Source: Candidatus Heimdallarchaeota archaeon (lineage in GTDB: Archaea > Asgardarchaeota > Heimdallarchaeia > Heimdallarchaeales > Heimdallarchaeaceae). Taken from it: 64,000 nt of DNA. The notes under the pieces were generated by a model. That model had not been told where the DNA came from. It did not search any database and saw nothing but the letters and a program-made list of their open reading frames with translations. The stretch is from NCBI GenBank assembly GCA_018238545.1, contig JABCTC010000016.1, positions 10,950 to 74,949 on the forward strand, read 5' to 3'. How positions within the stretch are numbered: the stretch's first letter is position 1; each line of letters starts with the position of its first letter. A program made the position numbers and the translations under genes. Below are positions 9,710-42,313 of the stretch, in pieces.

Positions 9710-9766
9710 AATATTTCAGTAGTTAGATTAAACTTTCTATTGAGCATTAAGAAAGTGTTAAATTTT

Positions 9767-10186: not shown

Positions 10187-10240
10187 AAGATTATGAAAGT
10201 GAAGATAGTTTTAAATTTAACTAATGGTCTGCTTTTTGTT

Positions 10241-10909: not shown

Positions 10910-11309
10910 CTATTTCACTAGAAAAAGAAGGTAAAGGCAGTAAAAAACATTTCCAAAAATAAGAAGAAAATTTTTGTTGCAATAACCAAAAATGCAAATT
11001 TTCAACAAATAGTAGCGAGAAAATTTAAATTCTCACACAATTTTTGGAAAGGTATATATAGGAAAAATGGCATATAATATTGCTAGAACGTTAGAGTCTG
11101 ACAAATTCCCAAAAAAAGGGAAGGAATTCATACGTATTGACAATATGTATGGAAACGGCTTGAAACTCATTAGAGTAGAGGTATTTGGTTCTCCTAAAAG
11201 TTTATAAGGACTGATGATAGGAGAGAATAACACAATAAAAAATTACGACTCTTAGAGAGGCTCTAATGAGTAAGACAACCAAGGATAACTTGGTTGAAAG
11301 TAAAAATAG

Positions 11310-11597
11310 GTGAAAATCATGAAAAGACGCAAACTTCCTCGTGGTGGAGAAGATATCATGAAGGTCCTGGATATTAGTGGACCAATGACACAAAAGCAGA
11401 TATTGGGTTCTGTCGACCAGCCTGAAAGAACTGTAAGATATGGTATTAGAAGGTTATTAGAAAAAGGAATCCTAAAGAAAATGTCCAATTTATCCGATAT
11501 GAGATCGGTATATTACTATCTTGATTTAGATATTCGCGCAAATTTCGAATTCTTAGTTAGTTCTAAGGAAAAAGTAGAAGTTTCTCAGACAAATTAA
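11310..11597 (+). CDS. Winged-helix (MarR/ArsR-like) transcription regulator
   Basis: GPMTQKQI...ERTVRYGIRRLLEKG..DMRSVYY pattern. GGTGA Shine-Dalgarno suggests the real start is ATG at 11319. Confidence 0.85.
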   Translation: MKIMKRRKLPRGGEDIMKVLDISGPMTQKQILGSVDQPERTVRYGIRRLLEKGILKKMSNLSDMRSVYYYLDLDIRANFEFLVSSKEKVEVSQTN

Positions 11598-11758
11598 TCT
11601 TATTTACTTTTGGGTCTTTTGGCCCCTTTATTCCGGGAGTGGGAGAGGGATTTTTTTTCCTTTTTTTATATTTGTTTCTTCTTGTTTTCTTTTTTTTGAG
11701 TGGTTTTTTTCTCTCTAACAAAATATATATTAAAGTTAGTTCCTATGCCTTATTTGTT

Positions 11759-12070
11759 ATGAGTGATATATCTCCCCTAACTGAAATTACCAATCTCAAA
11801 TCTCTTGCAAACTGGATGCAGAATGTAATCAAAGCTTATGAAAGTGGAGCCATTAATAAAAAGACTGCTGCTGCTTTAGCCAAAAGGACTTTGAAAAAAT
11901 TCAATAATTACATTGCAAAACCTGAAGAGAGCGAAAATTACGAGAAATTATCAGATTTATGTACATCACTTTCTACTATTCAGAGATCAGAGGGGAACTT
12001 CGAAACGTTTTATTTAGAAAGTTTGAAAGAAGAATTGGATATTTTGCTAAAAACTCTAATGGGGGTATAG
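11759..12070 (+). CDS. Small helical hypothetical protein co-transcribed with the GTPase
   Basis: Start moved to ATG 11759 because the track's upstream extension runs through a T-tract. Stop is 1 nt before the GTPase ATG. Confidence 0.7.
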   Translation: MSDISPLTEITNLKSLANWMQNVIKAYESGAINKKTAAALAKRTLKKFNNYIAKPEESENYEKLSDLCTSLSTIQRSEGNFETFYLESLKEELDILLKTLMGV

Positions 12071-12071
12071 A

Positions 12072-12614
12072 ATGAGCAGTTCCCAACCAGATTATAATTT
12101 TAAGATCCTTCTTCTAGGTAGTGCAGCTGTTGGAAAAACCAGTCTGGTACAGAGATTTGTTCATGATCGATTTGATTCCAGTTACTTGATGACAATTGGT
12201 ATGGAACCATCTGAAAAACGTGTACATCTTAAAGATGGAACAAAAGTAGCCTTATCCATTTGGGATTTAGCAGGTCAAGATAGATTTCGTTTCATCAGAC
12301 CTACTTTTTACAAAGGTGCAAAGGCGGCAATTCTTGTTTTCGATTTAACACGCTCAACAACTCTGAAGGATATTAAAAAATGGGATAAAGAATTCATTGA
12401 CAATTGTGGCTCTAAAGTTGTCAAAATTCTAGTTGGCAACAAAGAAGACCTTCAGAAGGAGAGAGCTATTTCAGAGTCAGAGTGTGAAGCGATGAACAAG
12501 AAAATTAAGAGCAAAATACAGTTCAATACAAGTGCCTTATCTGGAAAACATGTAGATGAAGCATTTTCAAAGATAGCTGAATTATTAGTTGAACAAGCTA
12601 AAGAGATGGATTAA
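12072..12614 (+). CDS. Rab-like small GTPase (Ras superfamily)
   Basis: G1 GSAAVGKTS, G2 TIG, G3 WDLAGQ, Rab-like RFRFIRPTFYKGA, G4 NKED, G5 TSAL. No C-terminal Cys. Confidence 0.95.
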   Translation: MSSSQPDYNFKILLLGSAAVGKTSLVQRFVHDRFDSSYLMTIGMEPSEKRVHLKDGTKVALSIWDLAGQDRFRFIRPTFYKGAKAAILVFDLTRSTTLKDIKKWDKEFIDNCGSKVVKILVGNKEDLQKERAISESECEAMNKKIKSKIQFNTSALSGKHVDEAFSKIAELLVEQAKEMD

Positions 12615-13237
12615 TCTTTCTCTTCTTTATCCCCTGTTTTTTCTACCTCAGAGTCACTTTCTTCTTCAAAGTCATCATCAAATAGTAACACACTATCTAA
12701 AACAGATTCTAGCAAAGGTCTATCAGGTGCATTAAGAAGAACATCTTGTGATTCAGAGACGCTCACGTCTAATGAAGAGAGATCTGCTCTGGGTCCTCTG
12801 GTTCGAGGTGTGGCAAATGTTGCGGTTCCGATATTCTTTATCATTGTTTTCATTGAAGAAATCTCGTCTTTTAATTCAGTGAAAGCAGGGAAATCATTAA
12901 GTTGATCTATCAGCTTATCTACCTTAGCCAAATCTTTCTTAGTTTTTTCTTCAAGTTTTTTCCCATTTTCTATAATCTTTGCCATTTTTCCTTCGGTAAC
13001 AGGAGAATTCATATGATTTATCGGTTGATAAACTCTCTCTGGAGGAGATGTCTGAGTTAGTTTGAAATCATCCAAAGTGCCAAATTGCTCTTTGTGATGA
13101 GATTTTATTGATTCTAAAATAGCTCTTTCTGGACTTCCATAGTGAGAAACAAGATCTTCTAGCATATCAAAGAATTCCATAGGGATAGGTAATTCTATGA
13201 TTCTTGCAATTCTTTGTCTTTGCTCATCACTATACAT
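12611..13237 (-). CDS. Hypothetical protein: ribbon-helix-helix-like N-terminus, coiled coil, acidic tail
   Basis: IIELPIP.EFFDMLEDLVSHYG.SPERAILESI resembles an RHH domain. Start taken at ATG 13237. Confidence 0.6.
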   Translation of the reverse strand: MYSDEQRQRIARIIELPIPMEFFDMLEDLVSHYGSPERAILESIKSHHKEQFGTLDDFKLTQTSPPERVYQPINHMNSPVTEGKMAKIIENGKKLEEKTKKDLAKVDKLIDQLNDFPAFTELKDEISSMKTMIKNIGTATFATPRTRGPRADLSSLDVSVSESQDVLLNAPDRPLLESVLDSVLLFDDDFEEESDSEVEKTGDKEEKD

Positions 13238-13391
13238 TAAACAGCCTCTAAGATTCAATTCTACTCTTTAACTTAAGATAGATTTCTCTATATATAGTAT
13301 TTATTACTGCTACGTTATTATATCTAAAGTTTTTTGGGTTTATTCTTTAAAAATGCACAAATTTAAAAGTTTAATTTTTTTAGATGAATTA

Positions 13392-14099
13392 ATGACTGAT
13401 GAGAAAAAAACCATTTTGGCTTGTTTTGCACATCCAGATGATGAGATTGGTTGTATTGGCACGCTTTCAAATCATGTTGACAAAGGAGATCAAGTTATCT
13501 TAGCTTGGACAACAAGTGGTGAAATGGCTTCCCACTTCGATAATATGTCTTTCAATGAGGTCAAAAAAATCAGAGAAGAACAAGGGCAAGCAGTAGGAGA
13601 GATTGTTGGAAGCAAGACTATGTTCTTAGGGTATGGAGATACTTCTGTTAGATCAACAAGAGACAGTGCTCTAAAAATGGCTAAAGTAATAGCAGAAGTA
13701 AAACCTGACGCAATAATCACATGGTCAATGAACACCAGACATCCGGACCATAGAGGAACAGCAAACATTCTTTATGACGCGTTGACATATGCCCGTATTC
13801 CAATAATAACAAACCCTCTTGACGCCTATAGACCACCTTTGCACAGCCCAATTTTTATGTATCATGAAGAATTATCACCTTTACCTACTGTTTATGTAGA
13901 TGTAACAGAAAATTTTGAAAAGGTCAGAAAAGTTGCTAAACTTTACGGAGATTTTTACAATTGGCAACAAGTAGATGATTGGATTGACGTTGGACGACGA
14001 TCTAATGGGTTAAAATGTGGAGTTAGATACGCAGAAAAATATAATATACTAACAAGATACCCACCTGTAGACAAATTATTACCTATTAACAAAGACTAA
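13392..14099 (+). CDS. PIG-L/LmbE family N-acetylglucosaminyl deacetylase
   Basis: AHPDDE, TSGE and HPDH motifs. Confidence 0.92.
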   Translation: MTDEKKTILACFAHPDDEIGCIGTLSNHVDKGDQVILAWTTSGEMASHFDNMSFNEVKKIREEQGQAVGEIVGSKTMFLGYGDTSVRSTRDSALKMAKVIAEVKPDAIITWSMNTRHPDHRGTANILYDALTYARIPIITNPLDAYRPPLHSPIFMYHEELSPLPTVYVDVTENFEKVRKVAKLYGDFYNWQQVDDWIDVGRRSNGLKCGVRYAEKYNILTRYPPVDKLLPINKD

Positions 14100-14175
14100 C
14101 TAGAGACTAAATTTTTTCAAGTAAAAATAATGGAAAAAAATAGTGAGTGAAAAGGCAAGCCCTTTTCAGCTCTTT

Positions 14176-14889
14176 TTAAATTGAAAGCTTGTTCTGATTT
14201 TTAGATGTAGACAATCTTCTCAGATAAGTATAAGACACAAAGAGGATAACACTAGCTACCATTAATGCAATTCCAAAGTAAATGTAAAGATGGCCATTAA
14301 TGAAATAGTTTACTCCATCGATTATATGAGATGATGTAACCATAAATGGTTGAATAAATAAGCCCATCCCAATACTCATCAGCATTAATGAAACAGTAGA
14401 GATTATAGTAGTCTTAGTATCTATTTTTTCTGTGCTATCTGAAGAAAATTTCGAAGGTGCTTCTGAATCTCTTTCGGAAGTTTTGAATCTAAGTTCGTAG
14501 AACGGCGGAAGCAACAATAATAATAGAACGATTCCATAAACAACTGTCCTCATTAGAGAAGGAGAAAATGACATCCCATTGCTTATCACCAAAAGTGAGG
14601 GAATTAGTCCACTAGCTAAACCAACAACACTTGTTGCTAAAGCAACAGGATAAAACCATGTCTTCCTAGAAATTAATGCCCAGATTAAGCCTCCAGAAAC
14701 TATAGCAGCTACATAAGTTAGAAGCGTGGTTATTATGAAAACCCATTGTAATTCATTCATTATGTAAAGGGCGCTAGATGTATCAGTTGTCGGATTAAAT
14801 GTCGGACAACTACTACCAATAGCACTTACTATTCCAATAAATGCTGCAAAGCTTTCAAAAACTATCAATGTTCTTATTTTTCCTTTCAT
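14176..14889 (-). CDS. Multi-pass membrane protein
   Basis: About 6 hydrophobic segments. Confidence 0.7.
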   Translation of the reverse strand: MKGKIRTLIVFESFAAFIGIVSAIGSSCPTFNPTTDTSSALYIMNELQWVFIITTLLTYVAAIVSGGLIWALISRKTWFYPVALATSVVGLASGLIPSLLVISNGMSFSPSLMRTVVYGIVLLLLLLPPFYELRFKTSERDSEAPSKFSSDSTEKIDTKTTIISTVSLMLMSIGMGLFIQPFMVTSSHIIDGVNYFINGHLYIYFGIALMVASVILFVSYTYLRRLSTSKNQNKLSI

Positions 14890-14978
14890 ATATTAACCTC
14901 AATATTAATTAGCATGTTTTATTTTTTAGATTTTTAAAGTTTCTCCGAATTAGCCTATTCAACGCCTTCAAGAACAAA

Positions 14979-14996
14979 TGTGCATGCGTATGCACA
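14979..14996. promoter_or_regulatory. Palindromic operator candidate TGTGCAT-N4-ATGCACA
   Basis: Perfect 7-bp inverted repeat between divergent genes, just upstream of the TATA-like ttttataata at ~15005. Confidence 0.5.
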
Positions 14997-15071
14997 CTGA
15001 ATGCTTTTATAATAGGATTGTTGGAAAGAATTTATATTCGCTTCAAATATTAGTTTTAAGAAGTGTATTAG

Positions 15072-15746
15072 GTGAAAAATATGTTTATGACAGATATTCT
15101 TGGACTTGTACTGTTATTAACAACAGGTGTTGTTGCACTTCTAATGTGCATCTGGCTAATTATTGATTATGCAAAAAACAGAAAACCATACCATATCCTT
15201 TGGGCTATAAGTATGGCCGTTTTATTTGTATCTGGTGTCTTAATCATCCTATTTGATTGGGGTGTTCTTGAAAACGCACTGGTTCCTGCTGTGGCAGCAT
15301 TAATTCCAGTAGGTTTTGCGACAGGTTTGCTATATGTAACATTTGAAAATAGATGGTATGCTAGAATTTTTGGCGTTTTGGAGGTTCTACTAATAATTAC
15401 TCTTGTATTTTTACGTTATTTTGCAGAAGATCTATCAACTGCTTTCATAATGATAATTCACATTCCTGCAGGACTTGCTATTGTAATCCTACCAATTTAC
15501 ACAGCGATTATCAAAGATACGGAAATGACCAGTATTATGTTCAGCATAGGCGGTTTGTTAATTTCAATTGGTGGAGCTTTGCTTGCTTTCCTAAAATTAG
15601 GTAGTGCCATCTTATCCGCAGAGACAATTTTCCTCATATTACCAGGTTTGCTTCTTATCGTAGGTGCCCTGATCTCTCTAGGAATAATATTCCCAACAAA
15701 ATGGAGACCAACATTTGAGATATTTAATAAGAAGCAAAATATTTAA
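15072..15746 (+). CDS. 7-TM membrane protein (likely start ATG 15081)
   Basis: Seven hydrophobic helices; first gene of a three-gene run ending in heme O synthase. Confidence 0.75.
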   Translation: MKNMFMTDILGLVLLLTTGVVALLMCIWLIIDYAKNRKPYHILWAISMAVLFVSGVLIILFDWGVLENALVPAVAALIPVGFATGLLYVTFENRWYARIFGVLEVLLIITLVFLRYFAEDLSTAFIMIIHIPAGLAIVILPIYTAIIKDTEMTSIMFSIGGLLISIGGALLAFLKLGSAILSAETIFLILPGLLLIVGALISLGIIFPTKWRPTFEIFNKKQNI

Positions 15747-15787
15747 AGCAGAATATTTGATAAAAGCAAAAAGGCGGTAAAAAAGAT

Positions 15788-17290
15788 ATGTCAAATAACG
15801 AATCTGATGAAAGTAAAACATTTTCAGGTCGATTTCAAGGTATGCTTAGATATGGTTTTGGTACCTACAAGGGATTAGTTACGTTAATTATTGCTTATTT
15901 AACCCTAACTATCCTTTTCTTAGGTACTTTTTCACAACCAATCGTAGAGATTATTGGAAAACCTATAATACCGATAGTATTAGACGATGCATTCCAAGTA
16001 AGTCGAATAATTATGTTATATCACTCAATTGCGATGCCATTTTTGGCAGCTGTTGTTTTCTTAGTTTTGGATACTTGCAATGTTCGAGAGAAGTTTAAAC
16101 CTCATGTCAAATGGCCAATTTTAACTGGTTCTCTACTAACTTCAACAATGGGTTTGACTTTTGCATATATATTACAACGGAATATGATTGTTCATGCATT
16201 TTTTATTCTTGGACTTTGTCTAGTTTTCTATGGTGGTGTAGTTTTGCTTATTGGAACCTTCCCAACAAAGAATTTTCCTGATTATGAGAAAAACAAAGAT
16301 GGTCCTTATTTAGGTAGATTAAACCTAGAACAGCTAAATATAATGTTAGTAGCTTTTTGCTTGTTAATTACAGCTTCAATAGCAGCTATTGTGGGGGCAG
16401 ATATTGGTAATTCGCAAGGACTATTTACAGACCCTCCACAAGTGTTTTCTTCTCCTTGGACACAAGTGTTTTATTTTCCATTTTTAGCAGAAGAATGGCT
16501 TAGATTTGAACATGAGACTTTGCCGTATCTCCGTATGATTATAGCTCATCTTCATAACATGCTAGCTATGATAGATGTAGCGGTACTATTGATAGTATTT
16601 CGTCGCATTAAGGTCACTAAACTATGGTACCTTGTGGCCAACATTTTAGTAATCCCCGGAACTTTAATTACATCTATCGGAGCTTGGTTAGTTGTTCCTG
16701 GTTATGAGGATGCGCATGTAATCATCAATGTAGGCGCAGCTTTCTTGCTATCTGCCAGTTTGATTTTAGTTATATTTGGATTTATACAGATTAGCAAAAA
16801 AGTTCTCGGAGAAAATTATGAGACAGCATCTATTTGGAAGCGTTTTATATCTATCTTCAAAGATTCTGTAAACTTTGGTCTTTACTGGCTATTTATTTGG
16901 GTTAACTTTGTGGTAACTGCTCCTGGAGTTTATACTGCACTTAATCTAGAGTATGTTAGGTCTCAACCTTGGATTCAAGAACGCACCTTTGCTTCAGGCC
17001 ATTGGCATGTCTTAGCAACTTTGACTGCAATGATGGTTTTACTTTTCTATATCGATCTCATAAATATGAAAGGTATTTTGCGCACAATCATAGGATGGTT
17101 CGTTACAGTTGGTGGTCTATTGGGCTTTGGAGCTGCTTTGTATTTCATGATGGTTGACAATACTAGTTCTTTTGCCACTATAGTAACCGATATAGGATTA
17201 TTTGCGCTATTCGCAGCAATAGGCATTTTCTGTATATACCAATTAGTCAAGATACTAAAAGGGGATAGAAGCAAGGAAATAGAACAATAG
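15788..17290 (+). CDS. About 12-TM His-containing membrane protein, remotely like heme-copper oxidase subunit I
   Basis: Intramembrane His motifs YHS, VHA, AHLH, AHV and GHWH; adjacent to cyoE. Confidence 0.55.
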   Translation: MSNNESDESKTFSGRFQGMLRYGFGTYKGLVTLIIAYLTLTILFLGTFSQPIVEIIGKPIIPIVLDDAFQVSRIIMLYHSIAMPFLAAVVFLVLDTCNVREKFKPHVKWPILTGSLLTSTMGLTFAYILQRNMIVHAFFILGLCLVFYGGVVLLIGTFPTKNFPDYEKNKDGPYLGRLNLEQLNIMLVAFCLLITASIAAIVGADIGNSQGLFTDPPQVFSSPWTQVFYFPFLAEEWLRFEHETLPYLRMIIAHLHNMLAMIDVAVLLIVFRRIKVTKLWYLVANILVIPGTLITSIGAWLVVPGYEDAHVIINVGAAFLLSASLILVIFGFIQISKKVLGENYETASIWKRFISIFKDSVNFGLYWLFIWVNFVVTAPGVYTALNLEYVRSQPWIQERTFASGHWHVLATLTAMMVLLFYIDLINMKGILRTIIGWFVTVGGLLGFGAALYFMMVDNTSSFATIVTDIGLFALFAAIGIFCIYQLVKILKGDRSKEIEQ

Positions 17291-17310
17291 ATACTAAAGG
17301 AAAATGAGAA

Positions 17311-18237
17311 ATGGCGAATCCAGAACAATTTCCAGTTATAACCGGAGAGGAGGTAAGAACCACAAGCAATAGGTTCTTATCCCTTCGTTTATATCTAGGT
17401 TTAATAAAAGAGAAGCAGACAATATTACTAGTTTTCACTTCGATGCTAGCATACTTAATATCTGCTTATCCGTTTATTTCACTTTCTGATTGTCTCTGGC
17501 TTCTCTTTTCCATATTTTTGGCTGTATCAGGTACAACTCTGTTAAACATGTATATTGATAGGGACATAGATAAAATAATGGAACGAACTAAAGATAGAGC
17601 GCTTCCTAGTGGTAAAACATCTCCACAATCTGTTGTAGGACATGGAATTCTCTATACAGTTTCAGGAATCGTGTTTGCAGGTGTTTTTCTTAACCTAACG
17701 GTTATGATCATAATTTTTCTAGGATTCTTTTTTGATATAGTAATCTATTCAATGTGGTTGAAAAGAAAAACTCGCTTTTCCATTATTTTTGGTGGAATTG
17801 CTGGGGGGTTACCTGCACTTGCGGGAAGAGTTGTGTTTACTGGACAAATTGATTTAATCGGAATTCTGATGGGAGTTTTTATTTTATCATGGATACCTTT
17901 GCACATACTTACGCTTGCATTATTGCCAAAAACATTAGAAGATTACAAAAATGCTGGAGTACCAATGTGGCCTGTAGTGAGAAGCAAAAAAGAGACAATT
18001 ATCGTTATTACAATATCCGCACTCATCAGTTCACTCACGGCTATTGTTATCAGTATACTTCTCAATATTTACATCGCGATTACTATAGTAGTTGTTTTTG
18101 CTGGGCTTATCCTAATTAGTTTATCAATCATGAATCTCATTAAACCAGCAGAGAAAACTACTAAATTCATTTTTATGGGTGCGTCACTGTTTATGGTTAT
18201 TGCATTTTTACTCTGGTTCATTGGCAAAGTCATTTAA
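17311..18237 (+). CDS. cyoE: Protoheme IX farnesyltransferase (heme O synthase)
   Basis: NMYIDRDIDKIMERTKDRALPSG, YSMWLKR, GGIAGGLPAL, WIPLH and DYKNAGVPM motifs. Confidence 0.93.
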   Translation: MANPEQFPVITGEEVRTTSNRFLSLRLYLGLIKEKQTILLVFTSMLAYLISAYPFISLSDCLWLLFSIFLAVSGTTLLNMYIDRDIDKIMERTKDRALPSGKTSPQSVVGHGILYTVSGIVFAGVFLNLTVMIIIFLGFFFDIVIYSMWLKRKTRFSIIFGGIAGGLPALAGRVVFTGQIDLIGILMGVFILSWIPLHILTLALLPKTLEDYKNAGVPMWPVVRSKKETIIVITISALISSLTAIVISILLNIYIAITIVVVFAGLILISLSIMNLIKPAEKTTKFIFMGASLFMVIAFLLWFIGKVI

Positions 18238-18382
18238 TAATTTTCTAGAGCCATAGAATCTCCAGAATTATTTATGAAAAATATTTATCACTAAATATTT
18301 TCTCTATTAGAATTATAAGCAAGAGTTGTGTAAAAATACACTTAAGAAGTAGTTTTTTACCATTAAATCTGTTGAGATACTT

Positions 18383-18772
18383 ATGACTGCGGACGATGCA
18401 TTAGACAAAATCAGGAAAAAAAAGGCTCAAGAGCTTCTTGAAATTGCTAATCTGAGAAAGCAGCGGATGGAAGAGCTAAAGAAATCTGAGCAAGCTCCAG
18501 CTAGTGTTGAAGAGAAAGATAAACTAGCTTTGATGAGGTTCTTTTTAGTTCCAGAAGCTTATGATTATTGGTCCAGTCTCTATGAGAATCAAAACAAAAA
18601 AGTTACCGCCGAAACTATTTTTAAAAATCTACTATATATGGTTAAAATTGGTTATATGGAAGGTAAACAAATCACTAGATTAGGAATAAAGAAGCTTGAA
18701 AGAGAAATTGAGGGCATACCTCCATCAATCACTATTAAAAGGAAAGGAGAGAAGGAAAGAACTGTAGATTGA
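18383..18772 (+). CDS. Divergent PDCD5/TFAR19-family protein
   Basis: DDALDKIRKKKAQEL start, L.PEA, and C-terminal ITIKRK. Confidence 0.65.
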   Translation: MTADDALDKIRKKKAQELLEIANLRKQRMEELKKSEQAPASVEEKDKLALMRFFLVPEAYDYWSSLYENQNKKVTAETIFKNLLYMVKIGYMEGKQITRLGIKKLEREIEGIPPSITIKRKGEKERTVD

Positions 18773-18780
18773 AACTATTT

Positions 18781-19065
18781 CTACTTTCTTCTTTCAGAAC
18801 TCTTGTAAAATATGACTAATTTCTCTTTATAGTGTTCTCTTAATCTTAGTATAACTTCATCAATATCCTTGTTTGAATCATTCTTACTAGATTGAACTGG
18901 AATGACAAGTTTATCATAACTACTTGTTTTCTTAGTTTCTACTTCTTGTACAATTTTATCTCTAAACAATAAAATTCTATCTCCTTTAATTTCAATTGAA
19001 TTATAAAATGGAGTAATGTCTGTGTCTACTTCTTCACAGATTTGGTTAACTACATCATAAATCAT
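18781..19065 (-). CDS. Hypothetical protein
   Basis: 94-aa ORF preceded by a GGGGTG Shine-Dalgarno-like sequence. Confidence 0.6.
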   Translation of the reverse strand: MIYDVVNQICEEVDTDITPFYNSIEIKGDRILLFRDKIVQEVETKKTSSYDKLVIPVQSSKNDSNKDIDEVILRLREHYKEKLVIFYKSSERRK

Positions 19066-19327
19066 TTAGGCACCCCTTGCGTATATTTTGCTCTGTTTTG
19101 GGCAGAAATAATTAGTAATTAATCATTCTACCTATCATAAAAATCGTAATCTCATAGTTAAGACATCATAATACATAGAGAATATCGGCATGTGTAAATA
19201 GCAGGAATTTTTGCAGTTTTAGAGATAGCAGTGTAGCGCATAATTATATAATAGTTGCAAATCATTTGACAAGCTTTAATAATGAATAAGTCAATAATGA
19301 AATTAGAAAAGCAAAGGTGAAAATAAA

Positions 19328-19564
19328 ATGAGAATTAGTGTCGTTACTGCAATAGGAGGAGGGTCATTGGAGCTGGACGTGGATCCCCAATCAACAGTAG
19401 CTCAATTAAAGAGAGAAGTTTCAAAAAAGAAAAAGATTCCAGCTAATACCGTGATTATCGTGTTTCATGGAAAACAACTAGATGATAGCGATATTTTGAA
19501 GCAAACTGGTATGATGGATGGAGATAAATGCTATCTAATTGCCAGAACTAAAGGCGGTTATTGA
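19328..19564 (+). CDS. Ubiquitin-like modifier, precursor ending GG-Y
   Basis: Beta-grasp pattern (LDVDPQSTVAQLK, IVFHGKQLDD) and C-terminal RTKGGY. Confidence 0.93.
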   Translation: MRISVVTAIGGGSLELDVDPQSTVAQLKREVSKKKKIPANTVIIVFHGKQLDDSDILKQTGMMDGDKCYLIARTKGGY

Positions 19565-19701
19565 TTAAAAGCCAAATCCCTTTCTTATTTTGATTTTACA
19601 GTTTTATTCATATTTAAGTAGAATTTCAATTTTCTGAGTTTTCAATATTGTTTTAGCTGTTCAAAAAGAAACATATATCAGAAAACAATAGTATCATATC
19701 G

Positions 19702-20718
19702 TTGGTTTGTGATTTAATGGTAGATGATCGTTACTCTAGACAGCAACTGATTCCTGGTTGGAACCAAGAAACTCTTTCTGAGAGCACTATAGTTCTCGTT
19801 GGGGTTGGTGCAATTGGAAGTTACGTAGGAACCATTCTTGTATCATCTGGTATTGGGAAACTAATAATAATAGACTTTGACACGATAGAAACATCTAATC
19901 TCAACAGACAGCTATTATATCGTGATGCTGATGTAGGAAACTCTAAATCAGAAACTGCCGCAAAAAGATTGAAGGAATTAAATCCAGAGGTAGACATCGA
20001 GTTCTATCATAAGAAGATGGAAAAGGTTTCTGTATCAGTATATGAGGAAGCAGATGTAATAGTCTCTTGTTTAGATACATTTCTGGGACGTAGGTGGATT
20101 AATTCAATGGCTATCAGAGTGAAAAAACCGTTAGTCACAGGAGGTATGTTTGCTTTTTTGGGAAACGCTCAAGTCATCATCCCTTACGAAACGGCGTGTT
20201 TTGAATGTCAACCTTTAGTTCCTGAAGAAGAATTAGCTCAAGCCTGTACACCTTTTGGTGAGGAAAGAAAAAAAGAAAGGGGAGAAATCGAGAAAGAACC
20301 TCCTCTTCCAGCTGTTGCAACATTATCGTCAATTATTGGAGGCATCATGGCTCAGGAAGCCTTGAAACTGACACTAAATATTGGTAATCATCTTCAGAAC
20401 TATCTTTTTTATGATGGATTAAATAATGCAACTACCATTTTGGAATTGGTTCGATCTGAAGAATGTCCTACTTGTGGAGAGTTATATAAGCTTGAACAGA
20501 TAGAATTTGTAGCTCATTCAGATGAAACAGTTAAAGAGTTAGAAGTTCGGTTAGCCTTAACTTATGGATTGGAAAAACCAGAATTAATGATAAAAGGAAA
20601 ATTATTAGATTCAAATGCATTAATCAAAGATTCTATCTCTAAAGGAAAAGAAACAGTGTTTGTTCTAGATAAAAATCTTGCAAAACCGATAAAAATTATA
20701 CTTCAGATAACGGAATGA
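19702..20718 (+). CDS. Ubiquitin-activating E1-like enzyme (ThiF/UBA3-like) with C-terminal ubiquitin-fold domain (likely start ATG 19717)
   Basis: DRYSRQ, GVGAIG, SNLNRQ, CFEC and CPTC Zn sites, putative catalytic QACTP. Confidence 0.92.
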   Translation: MVCDLMVDDRYSRQQLIPGWNQETLSESTIVLVGVGAIGSYVGTILVSSGIGKLIIIDFDTIETSNLNRQLLYRDADVGNSKSETAAKRLKELNPEVDIEFYHKKMEKVSVSVYEEADVIVSCLDTFLGRRWINSMAIRVKKPLVTGGMFAFLGNAQVIIPYETACFECQPLVPEEELAQACTPFGEERKKERGEIEKEPPLPAVATLSSIIGGIMAQEALKLTLNIGNHLQNYLFYDGLNNATTILELVRSEECPTCGELYKLEQIEFVAHSDETVKELEVRLALTYGLEKPELMIKGKLLDSNALIKDSISKGKETVFVLDKNLAKPIKIILQITE

Positions 20719-24172: not shown

Positions 24173-25345
24173 TTAAGCACTACTACCGAATTCTTCGTTC
24201 CATTTGTCGTATCTATCTACTTCTTCATCACTGATTGATGGGCTGATAGCTTCTATTGCTTCTAAGAAATCATCTTGTGTAACTGAACGTGCTTTTATAG
24301 TTGTATCAGTAATTGCTCCAGCCATGTCTAACTCTCTGATAGGTGTCATTATTGCTTCTCTGCACACCATTGCAATATCAGCACCAGAGTAACAATCAGT
24401 TATTTCTGCTAAAATAGAAAAGTCAACCTCAGAACACATTTCTATACCTCTTGTGTTATATTTGTAGATTGCTTCTCTAGCTTCAAGGTCTGGTAAAGGT
24501 ATGTAAATACGTCGTTCAAATCTCCTTCTAAAAGCACCATCTATTGCTTCTGGTAAGTTTGTCGCACCTACAGTAACAATACGATCTGTTTCTGAACTAG
24601 ATAAACCATCCATTGCAGTTAATAACTCAGTTTTAACCCGACGCATAGCATCATGTTCTCCTCCCCTTGCTCCTGCTAATGCATCCACTTCATCAATGAA
24701 GATAATACTTGGCTGTTTTTCACGAGCGAGAGTAAACAATGTTTTTACTAATTTCTCTGATTCACCTAACCACTTAGATATAATCGAAGATGCGCTAACA
24801 TTGAAAAAAGTAGCCTCAACTTCAGCCGCTGTAGCCTTTGCTAACAGAGTTTTTCCACAACCGGGAGGACCAAATAACAAAATCCCCTTCCAAGGTCTTC
24901 GTGCTCCTGAAAAAAGATCTGGACGCATTAAAGGCAACACTATTGCTTCCCTCAATGTTTGTTTAGCATTTTCTAATCCTGCAATGTCTTTCAGTGTGAC
25001 TGAAGGTTTCTCTGTAACGATAATATCAGAAATAGCTCCCGATAATTTATCATCTGTGTCATCATCGCCAGCTGTTGACTTCTTCTCTTTCCGTTTTTGA
25101 AGTAATCCTCGCAACTCCTTTGAACGAGCTAAATACATCTCCGCTTTCTTTTTCAAAGTTCGAGCAATTTGAGGGTTACGTTCAAATCTAATAGCTTTCA
25201 TTAAAGCTTCAGCTGCATCCAAATAATAAGGAATAGCCTCACTATAGTTTTTTTCTTTATCAAAAGTATAAGCTTTTAAAGCAAATTCTCTAGCATGATC
25301 TATTAAGCCTTGTGCTGACACGTGAGTCACAACCGTTTTTTTCAA
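24173..25345 (-). CDS. vps4: Vps4 AAA ATPase (MIT + AAA; likely start GTG 25321)
   Basis: N-terminal MIT domain, RRPWKGILLFGPPGCGKT, IFIDEVD, RRRFERRIYIPLP and terminal WNEEFG. Confidence 0.95.
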   Translation of the reverse strand: MKKTVVTHVSAQGLIDHAREFALKAYTFDKEKNYSEAIPYYLDAAEALMKAIRFERNPQIARTLKKKAEMYLARSKELRGLLQKRKEKKSTAGDDDTDDKLSGAISDIIVTEKPSVTLKDIAGLENAKQTLREAIVLPLMRPDLFSGARRPWKGILLFGPPGCGKTLLAKATAAEVEATFFNVSASSIISKWLGESEKLVKTLFTLAREKQPSIIFIDEVDALAGARGGEHDAMRRVKTELLTAMDGLSSSETDRIVTVGATNLPEAIDGAFRRRFERRIYIPLPDLEAREAIYKYNTRGIEMCSEVDFSILAEITDCYSGADIAMVCREAIMTPIRELDMAGAITDTTIKARSVTQDDFLEAIEAISPSISDEEVDRYDKWNEEFGSSA

Positions 25346-25445
25346 GTTCTATACTATTATTATTATTATCATCAGATATAAAGGTTTTATTTTACTTTTT
25401 ACTGTTCTCCACTTTCCCTTTAAAAATAAAAATAAAAAGGAAGAT

Positions 25446-26099
25446 TTAATCTTCACTCATTTTTTTCTTCAACGATTCAAGCTCTTCTTCAAGATCTGAT
25501 GTGTCTTCTTCCTTTTCACCTGAGACACCAGCTGGTGTTACGGGTAATCCAGAAATATCGGGCAAACTTGTTGTTGTTCCAAGATCCATTTCAGCCTCTA
25601 GCTGTGCTAATTGATCATCAATAGCAGCATCATCTTCAAAATCTAGAATTCCTTCTGATAAACTTGGATCAGATAGTGCTTCAGTCATCATTTCAATTTG
25701 ATCACGTTGTTCCATAACTGTATCCATAACGCGTTCTGTACGTTCTGGAGATACTTGCTTGATTTTCTCGCCAACTACTTTTGTGCCAATTTCCATTGCT
25801 TTAACAGTATCAGCAGTTGATGTTGCTGTTTGGATACCATCTATCTGAGCTTGAAGGTTCATAACAGTATTATGAAGAGAGTTGAGACGTTTCATGAAAA
25901 CTGCTCTTCTTTTGAGGGCTGATCTTGCTCCAGCTTTATTGCCAGTTTGAAGCATTTTAGCAGCTAATATTTTCTGCTCATCTGCTTGTCTTTCAAGATT
26001 TCTTGCCTCATGTTCCATTCTATTCATTTGTGCCTTGAGTGTTGAAAGAGCATCAGCATCTTCCTTACGTTTTTTGCCAAAGAGCCAATTTTTAACCAT
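25446..26099 (-). CDS. ESCRT-III, Vps20/32/60 (Snf7)-class
   Basis: NWLFGKK amphipathic start, KAGARSALKRR, MIM2-like LPVTP and C-terminal DLEEELESLK. Confidence 0.9.
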   Translation of the reverse strand: MVKNWLFGKKRKEDADALSTLKAQMNRMEHEARNLERQADEQKILAAKMLQTGNKAGARSALKRRAVFMKRLNSLHNTVMNLQAQIDGIQTATSTADTVKAMEIGTKVVGEKIKQVSPERTERVMDTVMEQRDQIEMMTEALSDPSLSEGILDFEDDAAIDDQLAQLEAEMDLGTTTSLPDISGLPVTPAGVSGEKEEDTSDLEEELESLKKKMSED

Positions 26100-26113
26100 T
26101 ATTTATCACCTAT

Positions 26114-26728
26114 TTAATCTTCTTCTCTTTTTCTTAGCTTTTGGATTTCTTGTTCTAAATCATCTGTTTCTACAACACCTACAGAAGGCAATCCTGCTTG
26201 TGTTGAGACACCTAATTCAACAGCTGTTTTTTCTATTAAACGATCTACTTCAGCTGGATCAGTGTCTGAAATCAATAAATCATCTATACCATCCTCAATA
26301 GTACCAGTAGATTCCTCAATACCATCAATAGAACCTTCCATATCCTGGATTACTCTATCTAAATCTGGTATTTGTAACTGTTCATTAGCTGCTCTGAGAG
26401 CGGATGCTACACCGTGCATTTCTGCCGCCATACTGGCAGCAGTATCTGATCGTTCGAGTTTGAAAATTAAACCGTTTATTCTAGATACTAATTTTTGATA
26501 TCCAAATTCCCAACGTTGATTTCGAACAATATCTGTAGCAAACAATCTCGCAGACTCTAAATCTCCTCGTTGAATACTTTGTTTCATTTTCAATTGCATC
26601 TTAGATTCGTCACGTTCAAGCTTTCTTTGAGCTCTTTCTAATCGACGAACAGTTAATCTTAGATTTACTATGTGGTCACGAGGGTTTTTCTTTGAACCCA
26701 ATAGCCATCCCATAAAATTTCCGAACAT
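26114..26728 (-). CDS. ESCRT-III, Vps2/24/46-class
   Basis: LRLTVRRLER..LERDE, GDLESARLFATDIVR and C-terminal MIM1-like DLEQEIQKLR. Confidence 0.9.
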   Translation of the reverse strand: MFGNFMGWLLGSKKNPRDHIVNLRLTVRRLERAQRKLERDESKMQLKMKQSIQRGDLESARLFATDIVRNQRWEFGYQKLVSRINGLIFKLERSDTAASMAAEMHGVASALRAANEQLQIPDLDRVIQDMEGSIDGIEESTGTIEDGIDDLLISDTDPAEVDRLIEKTAVELGVSTQAGLPSVGVVETDDLEQEIQKLRKREED

Positions 26729-26879: not shown

Positions 26880-27191
26880 ATGCTCATGAATAAAAAAACA
26901 GCAAAATTAGCAGTGATAATCTTTAGCATTGCCGGAGCTATAATGTTGATGTCGACAGGTGTTCTTGCACAAGATCCCCCATCGGATAATTATTTAAAAC
27001 CAATTGGAGCAGCCCTTGCAATAGGGATTGCTGGAGCAGCAGCAGCAATAGCAATGGGAATGGCAGGAAGTGCTGCAATAGGTGCCATAGTTGAAAATCC
27101 TGAATTATTCGGAAAAGCTTTTCTCTTCATTGTACTTATTGAAGCGGTAGCTATTTATGGGCTGCTTGTGGCAATTCTGATAGTATTCTAA
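26880..27191 (+). CDS. atpK: A/V-type ATPase proteolipid subunit c/K, with signal-like N-terminus
   Basis: GAALAIGIAG...ENPELFGKAFLFIVLIEAVAIYGLLVA with the conserved Glu. Lacks the Gln and E-S/T Na+ signature, so probably H+-coupled. Confidence 0.92.
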   Translation: MLMNKKTAKLAVIIFSIAGAIMLMSTGVLAQDPPSDNYLKPIGAALAIGIAGAAAAIAMGMAGSAAIGAIVENPELFGKAFLFIVLIEAVAIYGLLVAILIVF

Positions 27192-33092: not shown

Positions 33093-33488
33093 GTGAACAT
33101 AATGTCTATAGATTTAACAGCATCACAAAAAAAACAATTAGTTAAAATACTGAAACAAATTTCATTAGGTTGCGATTTAGAGGCGTTAGCTGTCGTTAAT
33201 GCAGAAGGTATCAAAGTTGCATTTTTTTCGGAGAAGGGAACAGATCCTGATTTACTCAGTGCGGTCTCTTCAGCGGTACTTTCCACAGGAAAAATGGTAA
33301 CTAGTAATTTAGAGCATGGTATTTTAGAGCTAGTATTAATAAGAGGAGAAGAAGGTTTCACAATATTAGCAGGTGCATCAGATTATATATTAATAGGCGC
33401 TAGCAGGGATTTACACAATGTTGGACTAGCTATGCAAGTTATTAAGCGATATGTGCCAGAAACAATAGAAGCTTTGTCGGAAAACTAA
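33093..33488 (+). CDS. Roadblock/LC7 domain protein (likely start ATG 33102)
   Basis: AVVNAEGIKVA, LLSAVSSAVLS, L..VLIRGEEG and NVGL motifs. Confidence 0.88.
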   Translation: MNIMSIDLTASQKKQLVKILKQISLGCDLEALAVVNAEGIKVAFFSEKGTDPDLLSAVSSAVLSTGKMVTSNLEHGILELVLIRGEEGFTILAGASDYILIGASRDLHNVGLAMQVIKRYVPETIEALSEN

Positions 33489-33530: not shown

Positions 33531-34523
33531 CTAGAAAATCCCATAAAATAGTAGATTGTCTCTAATTTCGGATTCAGCAAATCCTGCACTTACTCCAACA
33601 ATTATTCTGATAACATCCATTACTTCTGCAAGTTTTAATTCAAAGAATCCTATTAAAGCATCTGTTTCAAATACAGTTCCAAATCTAAAGGTCTTTTTCC
33701 AATATTTTAGCAAGTATTTCTCAACAGCAAATTCGAGGTCATGCAAAGGAATATCTTTTGCATTAATGTATCTTGAAAAAACAGCCTTATACGGTTGATA
33801 ATTATACTTTGAAAGTACTTCCGAAACACTAGTAGATTTCAGAGCTTTAGCTATAAACTTATTTGGCAGGATGTATCTATATGCAGGTATTCCCAAAGTT
33901 ATACATCTAGAAAGAGCTAGGATGTTTTTCATGTTAACATATGTTTCATATTTGTGAGAAACTTTTGGAAGTGTAGTATAGATATATTGATCTATTGCAG
34001 ACTCTATAGGAGTGAAGCGTTCAGTTTCTTCAAATTCAATGTAAGCTTCCCGTAATTGCTTTTGAAGATTTGAATCTTTTTGAGATGAGATAATTTTAGT
34101 TATGGGCATCAAAAGTAGTTTAGTATAATAATCTATGGTGTAGCCAGCTACAGGTACAATACGGGTCATAATATCATCATGTTTCATTCCTACATGAATG
34201 CCTTGTAATATTATTCGTAAATTTTCTGCGTTGTATCTTTCACTAAACAGTCTAATTTTCTTCTTAACTGAAGATGATGTTTGATTATAAAACTTAACTA
34301 ATAGTTCAGCGAAATTTGTTTTTAGTTTCCTTGCAACATCTTCAAGTTGTGTTTCGAAGTTAAGATGTCCTATTATGGAATCATATCTTGTTTGGGTAAA
34401 TGCTGCTCTTAGTTCCTTAAGATTTTTGGAGGATAATAAAAGACTCAATTGGGACTTTGTAAGTACATTCCCAACTATCCCATGAGCCCTGCCTAGTAGA
34501 TAACTTATATCACCGAACGACAT
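33531..34523 (-). CDS. atpC: A/V-type ATPase subunit C (AC39, eukaryotic subunit d homologue)
   Basis: YLLGRAHG start, YNAENLRIILQG and EVMDVIRIIVG...EIRDNL end. Directly follows subunit I. Confidence 0.85.
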   Translation of the reverse strand: MSFGDISYLLGRAHGIVGNVLTKSQLSLLLSSKNLKELRAAFTQTRYDSIIGHLNFETQLEDVARKLKTNFAELLVKFYNQTSSSVKKKIRLFSERYNAENLRIILQGIHVGMKHDDIMTRIVPVAGYTIDYYTKLLLMPITKIISSQKDSNLQKQLREAYIEFEETERFTPIESAIDQYIYTTLPKVSHKYETYVNMKNILALSRCITLGIPAYRYILPNKFIAKALKSTSVSEVLSKYNYQPYKAVFSRYINAKDIPLHDLEFAVEKYLLKYWKKTFRFGTVFETDALIGFFELKLAEVMDVIRIIVGVSAGFAESEIRDNLLFYGIF

Positions 34524-34524
34524 T

Positions 34525-37500
34525 TCAACTACCTTTTGCTGGTACTAATTCGATAAAGGATAGATTTTCTTTAAGAGGGGTGTAAATTTTGCCATCACCG
34601 ACATAGAATTTTGAGAAAAATTCTACCCAATGAAGCCTTAAAGTATTCAAGAAGGACAATAAACCTTCGATAGGCACAATTATGAATAGGCCCATTGCTA
34701 TTCCAACAACCCACCATAGCCAAGATTGAGCTAGTGGTGCCACTAATACTACTGGTGTTAATGCTTCAAGAGGAAAACCAAGGGTCATAATTACAGAAGA
34801 GACAGTTATCATATTGTCTATTCCTGTAAGAGTAAATGGTAACGCGCTTAAAATTGCATGAACTAGAAGCAATGCCATGATTCGGCTGAAGGATAAGGTA
34901 TTGGAAACAAGAGCAATTATATGATCAACTGCATCCATAATACCATCTGACTTTGCGTGAATATATTCAAGAACAAACAATACAGGAACCAAGCCTACCA
35001 GAAAGATAGCCCAAGAGGGGAACAAAGGCAATGTCCAATGATCTACATTTAAGATTATTGCAACGAAATGAGATTGAACACCATCTGCCATGATATTATA
35101 TAGCATTGCAAATATTCCAATGTATACTATTGAAAGTGTTAATGGAGCACCCCATGAGGCAAAACCATGCCCATACTTAATGTTTTGATAGATTTTCAAC
35201 CATATTCCGATTTGAATGATAAGGAAACCAAGAAGTAAAGCGACAACAAGAAGCAATTTAGTTTCATGTAATGGATTAACTAAAGGTATCCAGTTAATGC
35301 TAATACTGTGAAAAAGATGAGGTAAGAATTCTTCATCACCCAATAAAGATCCAAACAATATTCCAAAGAATGCTGCTGCTGAGCCACAGAAAATTAATAA
35401 CTCGCTACCGGAATATAGATACCCTGATATTGATTCACTAGGTTGAATCTTCTTCCTTCGTTTTCTAATAGCAAGAAATGCACCTATTAAAGCAAGCATT
35501 ATACCATGTCCTAAATCAGCAAACATGACACCGAAAAGTAAAGGAAAAGTGAATTTCATGACATTGTAGGGGTCAACCTCATGAGGATTTGGTTGACCTA
35601 TTCCCCCAATAATTCCTCCAATAGCACCAAATAATTTACCTCTTTTTGTAATAGATGGATTTGGAAGAGGTACCTTGTCTGTAATAGTTATATTAATCTT
35701 AAAATTCAATTCTTTTTCTTTTTCAAATAGGGGTTCCATGGCAAAACTTGGAATCCAGCCCCATAAAATCACTTTACCTTCAGAAACTTGACAGATTTCT
35801 TCTGTAGTAATCCTATCCAATTCTACAGAGATTAGTTCTTCAACTGCAGCTATTCTATCATTGGTTTCTTTAGTAAGTTCGGTTAATCTATTTTCCAATT
35901 GCTCAATATTCAGAGTGAGTTCATTCTTTTTGTTTTCGAGTGAATCTTCTTGCTGAAGTAATTCTATATCATATTCGATTGGTTGAAAAGTATATTCATT
36001 CAATACTCTGGAGATTGCTGTCTTATATTCCTTTAGCGCCAAAATAAACAAATTCTTCTCGCTCTTTTTTGAACCTAAAGACTCTGTTGCCCAGAACATT
36101 ATATTGCTATTTGTAACTTCATTTAAAAAGAACTTAACCGCTTTGAGATGGTTCTTTGGAATTGAACCCAAGAATGTAACTGTTTGAGAACCTCCTTCAG
36201 ATAACATGAATTCCATACCTTCACCCTTCATCACTTCTATTGTAGGGAGAAATAATTCAAGCTGATTTATTTCTTTTTTCAATTGATTGTATTCTGTGAA
36301 GGTTGTTTCAACTTCTTTCTCGTAATTATTAAGAAAGTTCTCTATAAATGCTTTAGAATGAGCTAAATCGTCAACAATTTGGAATTGTTCACAAGAATTT
36401 TCATCTGATTTCTTTAGATTTAACATCTCTCTGATTTTCTTTACTCTTGCATGATATTGTGTAAATTCTATACGTCTCTTGGTAATAGAATCAATTGTAA
36501 TAGTGTCCAAAGAACCAATCTTTACTGGATGAATTGAATTCAAAGAACGAATAAATGAGATAAGCTGACGGGTGTATTTACTTTTAGTCACCATTTTTAC
36601 AAAAGAAGCTTTTTTCGGGAAAAATGGTCCACCTTCAGGTTCAACTCCCCTATGAGACAAGCTTGGTACATGTTTCTCCTTTTCTTTTTGAATCATTTCA
36701 GGTTTTGCTATTTTCAGCTCATCATCCTCTTTCTTTGTTTTCTTATATGAAAATGGAACATCATCAAGTACAGAAAATTTAGGCTGAATCTTCAGTGATT
36801 CTATGTCATTTACAAAAGTTTCGTAATTTTTATTCGTTACCCATCCCCAGATTGTAAACATTTCTTCATCTGTTCGACCTTTTTCTTCTATTGTTTGAAG
36901 AATGATTTCGGTTTTTATTGAATCAATGTAGAAAACAATTGTCTTGGTTAGGTCTACTAAGTATCCTTCTAATTTTTGTTCTATTTTTTCCAATTCAGAA
37001 TTTATCATGGAATATAGATCACTTACTGTTGTCGAAGATGTATAATCTTCAATAGTTTTGAGTGACGATAAGTCTAAATTTGTAGGTTCAAAATGATTTT
37101 GTTCAAGAAGTTCTTCTACATTTTCTTTTAAGTCCATTAAGGAAATACAGATTATTGTTTTGGTTTTCCTTCCTTCAGTTGCGACACTCCATAAAAATAT
37201 CTTTCCACCAGTAATTTCATTTAAATAAAAACGAATTAGTTCTTCATAGGATGAAGGAATTTCACCGTAAATAGTAAATGTTTTGGAATTGGAAGATAGA
37301 AGATCAATTGTAAATTTATCTTTCTCAATTTGACGTTTGAATTTGTTTAAACCTGCAAGGATACGCTCTTCCTTCTTTAATTGCTTATGTTTGGTAACTT
37401 GAATTGATATTGCTTCTTCATGTTGGTCAATAAACGATTCTATTTCACTTTGCAGTGTTGAAACGTCTAAGATTTTCTCAAAAGAGTATTTCTCTTCTGC

Positions 37501-37722
37501 TGCAAAATCATCAAAAGGTATTTTGATTAAATTCCCTATCTTCACCAAGCGAAAGAAACAATTTTCAAGTTTATCCTTCGTTTCTTGTATTCTTGCTTGC
37601 TCTTTTGGACTTTGAGGATCTACTATAATCTGGTCATAGTAATCTAAAGTAACAATTTTTCTAAGTAAGTTTAAGGTATTGTCCTTTGGAACCTGTATTT
37701 TAGATAAAACGACTTTTGCCAT
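34525..37722 (-). CDS. atpI: A/V-type ATPase subunit a/I with duplicated N-terminal soluble domain
   Basis: EVDP...FPLLFGVMFADLGHG, SNTLSFSRIMAL (essential Arg) and LRLHWVEFFSKFY. 1065 aa long. Confidence 0.93.
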   Translation of the reverse strand: MAKVVLSKIQVPKDNTLNLLRKIVTLDYYDQIIVDPQSPKEQARIQETKDKLENCFFRLVKIGNLIKIPFDDFAAEEKYSFEKILDVSTLQSEIESFIDQHEEAISIQVTKHKQLKKEERILAGLNKFKRQIEKDKFTIDLLSSNSKTFTIYGEIPSSYEELIRFYLNEITGGKIFLWSVATEGRKTKTIICISLMDLKENVEELLEQNHFEPTNLDLSSLKTIEDYTSSTTVSDLYSMINSELEKIEQKLEGYLVDLTKTIVFYIDSIKTEIILQTIEEKGRTDEEMFTIWGWVTNKNYETFVNDIESLKIQPKFSVLDDVPFSYKKTKKEDDELKIAKPEMIQKEKEKHVPSLSHRGVEPEGGPFFPKKASFVKMVTKSKYTRQLISFIRSLNSIHPVKIGSLDTITIDSITKRRIEFTQYHARVKKIREMLNLKKSDENSCEQFQIVDDLAHSKAFIENFLNNYEKEVETTFTEYNQLKKEINQLELFLPTIEVMKGEGMEFMLSEGGSQTVTFLGSIPKNHLKAVKFFLNEVTNSNIMFWATESLGSKKSEKNLFILALKEYKTAISRVLNEYTFQPIEYDIELLQQEDSLENKKNELTLNIEQLENRLTELTKETNDRIAAVEELISVELDRITTEEICQVSEGKVILWGWIPSFAMEPLFEKEKELNFKINITITDKVPLPNPSITKRGKLFGAIGGIIGGIGQPNPHEVDPYNVMKFTFPLLFGVMFADLGHGIMLALIGAFLAIRKRRKKIQPSESISGYLYSGSELLIFCGSAAAFFGILFGSLLGDEEFLPHLFHSISINWIPLVNPLHETKLLLVVALLLGFLIIQIGIWLKIYQNIKYGHGFASWGAPLTLSIVYIGIFAMLYNIMADGVQSHFVAIILNVDHWTLPLFPSWAIFLVGLVPVLFVLEYIHAKSDGIMDAVDHIIALVSNTLSFSRIMALLLVHAILSALPFTLTGIDNMITVSSVIMTLGFPLEALTPVVLVAPLAQSWLWWVVGIAMGLFIIVPIEGLLSFLNTLRLHWVEFFSKFYVGDGKIYTPLKENLSFIELVPAKGS

Positions 37723-41176: not shown

Positions 41177-42313
41177 TTGGAAGAGATGATACAAAACAAA
41201 CCGCTTGTTATCGATAATGGTACGGGCTTTACCAAAAACGGTTTTGCTGGAGAAGATCAACCTAGAAGCGTTTTTCCAACGATCATTGGTTATCCTAAAT
41301 ATCAGATAATCATGACCGATGTAGAACATTACGTTCGCGAATATTACATAGGCGAAGAAGCTATCAACCTACGAGGTGTTTTGAAGCTTGTTTATCCTGT
41401 TGAGCATGGACAAGTTCAAGATTGGGATGCTATGGAACGCATTTGGCATTATACTTTCTATAATGACTTACGTGTTAATCCTAATGAACATCCTATTCTG
41501 TTAACTGAACCTCCTTTGAATAAAAATCAAAACAAAGAGAAAATGGCAGAATTAATGTTTGATACATTCAATGTACCTGCAATGTATATCTCAATGCAGG
41601 CTATTCTATCCCTATACGCATCAGGTCGTACAACTGGTATAGTTGTAGACTCTGGTGATGGTGTTACACACATTGTTCCTGTCTATGAAGGTTTCGCAAT
41701 TGCTCACGCCATTCATCGTTCTGATATCGGTGGTCGTGATGTAACTGACTATTTGAGAAGATTACTCCGACAACGTGGATATTCACTTTCTAGCAGTGCT
41801 GAGAGAGAAATTGTCCGTGACATTAAAGAACGTCTTTGCTATGTAGCTTTAGATCCTGAAAAAGAATTGAAGCTAGCTGAGAAAGTTTCTGGAATGGAAA
41901 AGACATACACTCTACCTGATGGTGAAACATTAACCATTGGTGCTGAGAGATTCATGGCCCCTGAATTGTTCTTCAATCCTGGAGCTATTGGTTCTGAAGA
42001 GAATGCATTAGATGAATTAATTTACAGATCCATTCAAAACTGTGATGTCGATCTTCGAAGAGATCTATACGCCAATATCGTATTATCAGGCGGATCTACA
42101 ATGTTCCCAGGTCTAAAAGAACGTCTCCACAAGGAGCTTACTGAATTAGTACCTGAAACAATGGAAGTAAAAATCATTGCCCCCCCTGAAAGAAGATATT
42201 CTGTTTGGATTGGTGGAAGTATCTTAAGTTCCCTTAAGACATTCGCAAAACTGTGGGTTACCAAGAAAGAATACAAAGAAATTGGTGTTACCGCAGTTTA
42301 CCGCTGTATCTAA
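41177..42313 (+). CDS. Asgard actin (Lokiactin-type)
   Basis: [41 protein letters not shown] and [16 protein letters not shown] motifs. Confidence 0.98.

Follow-up and report, generated by a model that had tools for sequence, protein, structure and literature searches.

A tandemly doubled soluble arm on A/V-ATPase subunit I of Heimdallarchaeaceae: a probable parallel to eukaryotic subunit C

In the A/V-ATPase of Thermus, both lobes of the soluble arm of subunit I bind E-G stalks, one each, and the same arm is also able to clamp subunit d (PMC7367684). The eukaryotic V-ATPase has three stalks, for which E and G are each present three times (PMC3569449); in yeast the third of these is bound by the head of subunit C (Vma5) alone, and the foot of this subunit contacts stalk 2 and the arm of subunit a (PMC6131620). 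Subunit C and the third stalk have been reviewed as features found only in eukaryotes (PMC6131620; bioRxiv 10.64898/2026.10.01.756066). Regarding the relatives of the eukaryotic enzyme, its B subunits were reported to group with those of Asgard archaea, in a study in which Hodarchaeales served as the archaea predicted to be closest to eukaryotes (10.1101/2023.04.11.536006). No description of a subunit I with a doubled arm was found in the literature searched, which included few subscription papers.

The gene analyzed in this work is located at positions 34525-37722, on the minus strand, of a 64,000-nucleotide stretch of DNA (the window; positions 10,950 to 74,949 of contig JABCTC010000016.1, assembly GCA_018238545.1) from a Candidatus Heimdallarchaeota archaeon of the family Heimdallarchaeaceae. 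It encodes an A/V-ATPase subunit I/a of 1065 aa that matches the PF01496 profile with 125.8 bits, against a curated cut-off of 30.7. The extra soluble hairpin domain, R1 (aa 1-324; 36751..37722, minus strand; AlphaFold2 pLDDT 87.9, pTM 0.77), runs from a proximal lobe through a long helix to a distal lobe (aa ~145-215), and back through a second long helix to the proximal lobe. Its proximal lobe carries the R1-specific motif QxxVDPQxPxEQA (aa 31-43; 37594..37632, minus strand), defined by conservation in 27 sequences. A charged linker that is predicted to be disordered (aa 325-367; 36622..36750, minus strand; pLDDT below 50 for aa 340-370 in the AlphaFold2 model) leads to the membrane-adjacent soluble hairpin domain, R2 (aa 368-686; 35665..36621, minus strand), the more conservative copy with 51% mean identity. 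Across the 27 homologues, 44-48 aa separate P323 and F368. The membrane domain (aa 687-1065; 34525..35664, minus strand; PF01496) includes R947, H955, E1019 and R1029; of these, R947 and R1029, the arginine pair of the proton path, match Stv1 of yeast in the alignment and are invariant in the 27 homologues, where the mean identity of this domain is 70%.

R1 and R2 are clearly related to each other. BLASTP aligns them with 25% identity over 279 columns (E-value 8e-19), their local alignment score is 228 as compared with 45 +/- 7 (maximum 72) for 300 shuffles, and a profile-profile comparison of the two families with HHalign covers 315 columns from end to end (probability 99.96, E-value 7e-39). 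In the AlphaFold2 model both show the same order of strands and helices on either side of the low-confidence linker, and the models of both align to the arms of subunits a/I, that is, to the two-lobed soluble hairpin fold. At the nucleotide level the only trace of the repeat is a stretch of 42 nt with 71% identity at a distance of 1098 nt; since the two DNA copies have diverged almost fully, the repeat is old and does not represent a collapsed or doubled assembly. An assembly artefact is also excluded by the existence of over 25 full-length homologues, 1036-1076 aa in length, two of which come from complete genomes. An earlier note made from the sequence alone had described the 1065-aa frame, the paralogous halves with their matching motifs and a single intact membrane domain behind them, and had left room for an artefact; its description holds in every one of these points.

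The gene for A-ATPase subunit C (330 aa; 33531..34523, minus strand; PF01992 E-value 1e-28) starts 1 nt past the stop codon of subunit I. This protein is the homologue of eukaryotic subunit d, and not of eukaryotic subunit C; it is referred to here as C/d. In 18 of 19 loci its gene comes immediately after that of the doubled subunit I, the remaining one being at a contig-cut edge or likewise coupled. The window also contains the gene for the proteolipid K/c (103 aa, one hairpin; 26880..27191, plus strand; PF00137 E-value 6e-19), which is single-copy in the closed genomes. The other partners are dispersed, with A, B, G, F and D on contig C102 and E on contig C18, so that the complete set A, B, C/d, D, E, F, G and K is present in the genome. 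A second ATPase set, with a normal subunit I of 676 aa, forms a compact operon on contig C39. This subunit I groups far from the doubled form, with families whose codes read as Lokiarchaeia-like. In this operon (8982-19834) D and E are separated by a gene for a universal stress protein, K has four helices, and AtpA, with 1150 aa, contains an intein that includes LAGLIDADG domains; operons of this type occur in many genomes of the genus and were not found in the closed Heimdallarchaeum genomes. The window further holds Vps4 together with two Snf7/ESCRT-III genes (24173-26728, minus strand), a roadblock gene (33093-33488, plus strand) and an actin gene (41177-42313, plus strand). Actin and roadblock genes are found near the I-C/d pair in most Heimdallarchaeaceae genomes, in variable order.

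In a survey across Asgard genomes, as the earlier note had proposed, the doubled form turned out to be confined to one family. It is present in 28 of 30 Heimdallarchaeaceae genomes: when 399 Asgard genomes were searched with an R1 profile, a full-length match (E-value of 1e-75 or lower) was obtained in the source genome and in 27 of the other 29 members of the family, the two without a match being 82% and 89% complete. The next-best matches were always the R2 of the same proteins (4e-45 at best; around 1e-31 or lower for complete R2 copies), and outside of the family nothing scored better than 2e-18. No doubled subunit I was seen in other Asgard families among these 399 genomes, and in a set of 64 subunit I proteins that sample 22 further families, the other orders of the class included, every one is single-domain, with 599-828 aa. 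In the phylum-wide PF01496 comparison frame lengths were given for the best matches only, so a distant and independent doubling may still exist elsewhere. In all intact genes R1 is fused to subunit I. A free-standing R1 was not found; the short matches correspond to partial or frameshifted genes, contig ends or short contigs. One gene is apparently split, with the break inside the membrane domain and a repeated segment, and in one MAG R1 is interrupted by a lone internal stop codon; neither loss of R1 nor a true fission was detected across the 28 genomes. Ca. Heimdallarchaeum aukensis and H. endolithica, whose genomes are complete, yielded no subunit I other than the doubled protein, which must therefore be the working stator there and not a spare one.

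Two other departures from the usual length of subunit I were observed. In Hecatellales and related Bathyarchaeia (L134, L137 and L141) the soluble region is about 490 aa long, some 160 aa above the usual, perhaps through a partial internal duplication or an insertion. In Jordarchaeia/Freyarchaeia (L048-L053 and L130) subunit I reaches 800-827 aa by an insertion of about 120-130 aa, located within the membrane domain and not in the soluble arm.

The history of the duplication was analyzed with separate trees of the soluble and membrane domains, built on archaeal subunits with the eukaryotic a and C sequences left out; short-arm lineages and near-duplicates were also left out of the arm tree. 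In the soluble-domain tree of 92 rows, each repeat forms a clade, R1 with a support of 100/100 and R2 with 98/90; the two group as sisters (100/100), the stem below them is long (1.04), and their joint clade adjoins the three other families of the order (96/73). The membrane-domain tree places Heimdallarchaeaceae as sister to the same three families (100/99). Forcing R2 to group with the sister families without R1 was rejected (p-AU 5.75e-7), and within Heimdallarchaeaceae the trees of R1 and R2 mirror each other. A search of 1.84 billion representatives identified P0042, a single-domain subunit I of 674 aa followed by C/d; by its arm this protein is the sister of R1+R2 (98/94), and by its membrane domain it belongs, on a long branch, to the same order-level clade. 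From both trees and the position of P0042 it follows that the arm was duplicated once, after the order had diversified and before the family did. By these phylogenies and the distribution of the doubled form, a single tandem duplication on the stem of Heimdallarchaeaceae, in a vertically inherited A-type ATP synthase/ATPase, is shown. The earlier note had considered that R1 could be a recent, lineage-specific duplicate of R2; lineage-specific it is, but the duplicate is as old as the family and not recent. Of the subunits I with one soluble domain, the nearest to the doubled form is that of an unplaced lineage recovered on long ENA contigs of up to 2.85 Mb (L232, L233 and L234); its gene is succeeded by C/d and by as many as five consecutive genes matching SocA/Panacea (PF13274).

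The two copies have been conserved to a similar degree, with a mean identity of 47% for R1 and 51% for R2 in the 27 homologues; in both, the lobes are more conserved than the helices, and the distal lobes reach 57% and 62%, respectively. The branches of R1 are the longer ones (2.10 vs 1.42). Seven residues of R1 (Q31, V34, P36, Q37, P39, E41 and Q42) are invariant in the 27 sequences, and D35, Q37 and P39 are present in 15/15 of a wider set that includes Ca. Heimdallarchaeum, where R2 has a different motif. R2 retains R385, E629, E634 and R637, which are near-universal in single-domain Asgard subunit I. R1 is devoid of this charged proximal cluster (in R1 numbering, R17, E267, E272 and R275), which persists in almost every single-domain subunit: R17 occurs in 39/43 outgroups and 15/15 R2 sequences, E267 in 43/43 and 14/15, and neither is among the common residues of R1. 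Conversely, the V34-D35-P36 loop is kept by the sister families and has been lost from R2; D35 itself is common to 11/11 of the sister sequences and to 0/15 of R2. In the distal lobe, R1, R2 and the outgroups agree in retaining G153, E169, T171, L206 and F211; these residues may belong to the core of the fold rather than to a binding face. R1 has also acquired invariant residues that are absent from R2 and the outgroups (Q10, Q31, Q37, P39, E41, E160, Y166, G282 and T284). The complementary loss of residues in R1 and R2 fits a division of the old contacts as well as it fits a new stalk.

The relationship of R1 to eukaryotic subunit C was evaluated by structure and by profile. The closest structure to the R1 model is the arm of the yeast a-subunit (Z 18.3, rmsd 3.8 Å, 305 residues), and R1 within a full-length model that was folded without R2 rows in the R1 columns gave the same result (Z 18.9). 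With Vma5 (PDB 1U7L) the alignment is colinear over 271 residues, with Z 7.3 and an rmsd of 11.2 Å in which the bend of the predicted model is uncertain; in the same wide search Stv1 reached Z 11.2. Foldseek TM values for R1 were 0.23-0.34 with C chains and up to 0.70 with a chains, Vma5 being matched with an E-value of 4e-7. Subunit C was absent among the best 50 of the Foldseek-seeded VIA list and appeared in the wide search. The subunit C profile, PF03223, matched neither R1 nor R2 alone, nor any protein of the source genome or of 29 genomes of the family at an E-value of 0.01; across the 399 Asgard genomes nothing exceeded the cut-off, and three sub-threshold matches came from other families. 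Profiles of R1 and R2 compared with PDB sequences retrieved no subunit C, only a weak match to Stv1 for R2, and the ESM Atlas yielded nothing beyond subunit I/a-like clusters. The predicted shape of R1 is the bent one of the a-type and differs from the long head-neck-foot form of subunit C, but the bend may reflect the training of AlphaFold on a-subunit structures. The extra copy thus has a complete a/I-type fold, and the topology that this fold has in common with Vma5, anticipated in the earlier note, is real; comparison of the repeats with both families, also suggested earlier, puts R1 nearest to the arm of subunit a. R1 shares the old fold kinship of the a-arm and C, and has no extra closeness to C.

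The explanation that best fits these data, to which we assign a probability of roughly 0.45, is that R2 is part of an ordinary two-stalk stator, while R1 adds to the collar and provides the anchor for a third E-G stalk, in convergence with subunit C. According to the conserved residues and the Thermus structure, R2 and the membrane domain would provide the proton path and anchor both ordinary E-G stalks, the proximal and the distal one. R1, predicted to fold as a second hairpin on a tether of 44-48 aa, could then reach either side of the ring. Its conserved distal lobe would dock a further E-G heterodimer, identical to the other two, and this stalk would extend to the A3B3 head at its third docking site, which is normally unoccupied; the rewritten proximal lobe would pack against R2, or against one of the R2 stalks, as its new partner. 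A docking role for R1 is suggested by the binding of stalks to both lobes in Thermus, by the distal-lobe residues that R1 has kept and by its colinearity with Vma5, in which the foot would correspond to the proximal lobe and the head to the distal lobe. The closed Ca. Heimdallarchaeum genomes encode one E, G, D and K each; given that eukaryotes use three copies of the same E and G, a third stalk would need no new gene, and its presence on the doubled subunit I is plausible. When R1 was modelled in complex with E (1-105) and G (5-106) of this genome, the individual runs yielded 0.47, 0.00 and 0.00, and the result was not counted either way. The duplication would have given rise, by convergence, to a covalently attached counterpart of subunit C, and not to its ancestor. 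Tentatively, Heimdallarchaeaceae may then have arrived at a three-stalk prokaryotic ATPase through arm duplication, an independent replay of the step, copying of the arm and docking of a third E-G stalk, from which eukaryotic subunit C may have come.

An enzyme with two stalks only, whose copies have divided the old contacts, is less likely and is the leading alternative. R2 would carry the stalks, and R1 would brace or brake the rotor through subunit d or the c-ring, as the single arm clamps the rotor in the isolated Thermus Vo, or would take one of the two stalk sites. The ancestral residues retained in a complementary manner by R1 and R2 speak for this division, as do the two jobs of the single Thermus arm, stalk docking and clamping of subunit d (PMC7367684), and the family-wide coupling of the subunit I gene with C/d. 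This pairing, however, also occurs in the single-domain sister lineage and is not special to the doubled form, and both lobes of R1 are maintained at a conservation similar to that of R2, more than one contact would need. It is improbable that R1 docks something outside the core enzyme, such as a neighboring ATPase in membrane-shaping dimers or rows, or a family-specific regulator or cytoskeletal partner; the new invariant residues and the long flexible tether would suit such a role, but no candidate partner gene travels along except C/d, and the actin, roadblock and SBP genes nearby are ordinary neighbors that shift in order. Still less probable is a duplication that became fixed with little new function, R1 being kept for folding or stability, or swapping with R2: R1 does evolve faster than R2 and has lost the universal charged cluster, but it shows no loss or true fission in 28 genomes, the length of the linker is fixed and each repeat has its own invariant motifs. 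Finally, the reading of the earlier note, in which R1 is the direct precursor of Vma5/ATP6V1C, a covalent proto-subunit C whose gene was inherited or acquired by eukaryotes and later split, is very improbable, because the matching topology (Foldseek E-value 4e-7, 271 residues), a host that belongs to Heimdallarchaeia and eukaryotic B subunits that group with Asgard are set against a lineage-specific R1+R2 clade (100/100; p-AU 5.75e-7) nested in one family, closest relatives and 64/64 subunits of 22 other families that are single-domain, an R1 much nearer to the a-arm than to C, the absence of a PF03223 signal and of a free R1 in the genomes searched, and predicted closest relatives of eukaryotes that are Hodarchaeales and not Heimdallarchaeaceae (10.1101/2023.04.11.536006).

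Compared with the known prokaryotic subunit I (Thermus thermophilus, PDB 6R0Z, 6LY9 and 5GAR; Meiothermus ruber N-terminal domain, PDB 3RRK; NCBIfam PRK05771), the doubled form has in common the membrane domain with the Arg pair, the two-lobed hairpin and the set of partners; it differs in having two hairpins in tandem instead of one, with 1036-1076 aa in contrast to the 599-828 aa seen elsewhere in Asgard, and it scores far below the cut-offs of the NCBIfam equivalog models. Two arms on the sole subunit I of a prokaryotic enzyme break the one-arm rule, whatever R1 does. Eukaryotic subunit a (Vph1/Stv1, ATP6V0A1-4) provides the best structural match of R1 and the best PDB sequence match (E-value 1e-22), but it has one soluble domain, and its collar is completed by the separate subunits C and H. 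Subunit C (Vma5, ATP6V1C, PF03223) has the same topology as R1 and would share with it the anchoring of a third stalk; it is a separate, elongated soluble polypeptide that is released on disassembly, whereas R1 is fused and derives from a family-level duplication. The doubled arm does not demonstrate an origin of eukaryotic subunit C in Heimdallarchaeaceae; most likely, it is a parallel to this eukaryotic collar subunit and not its ancestor.
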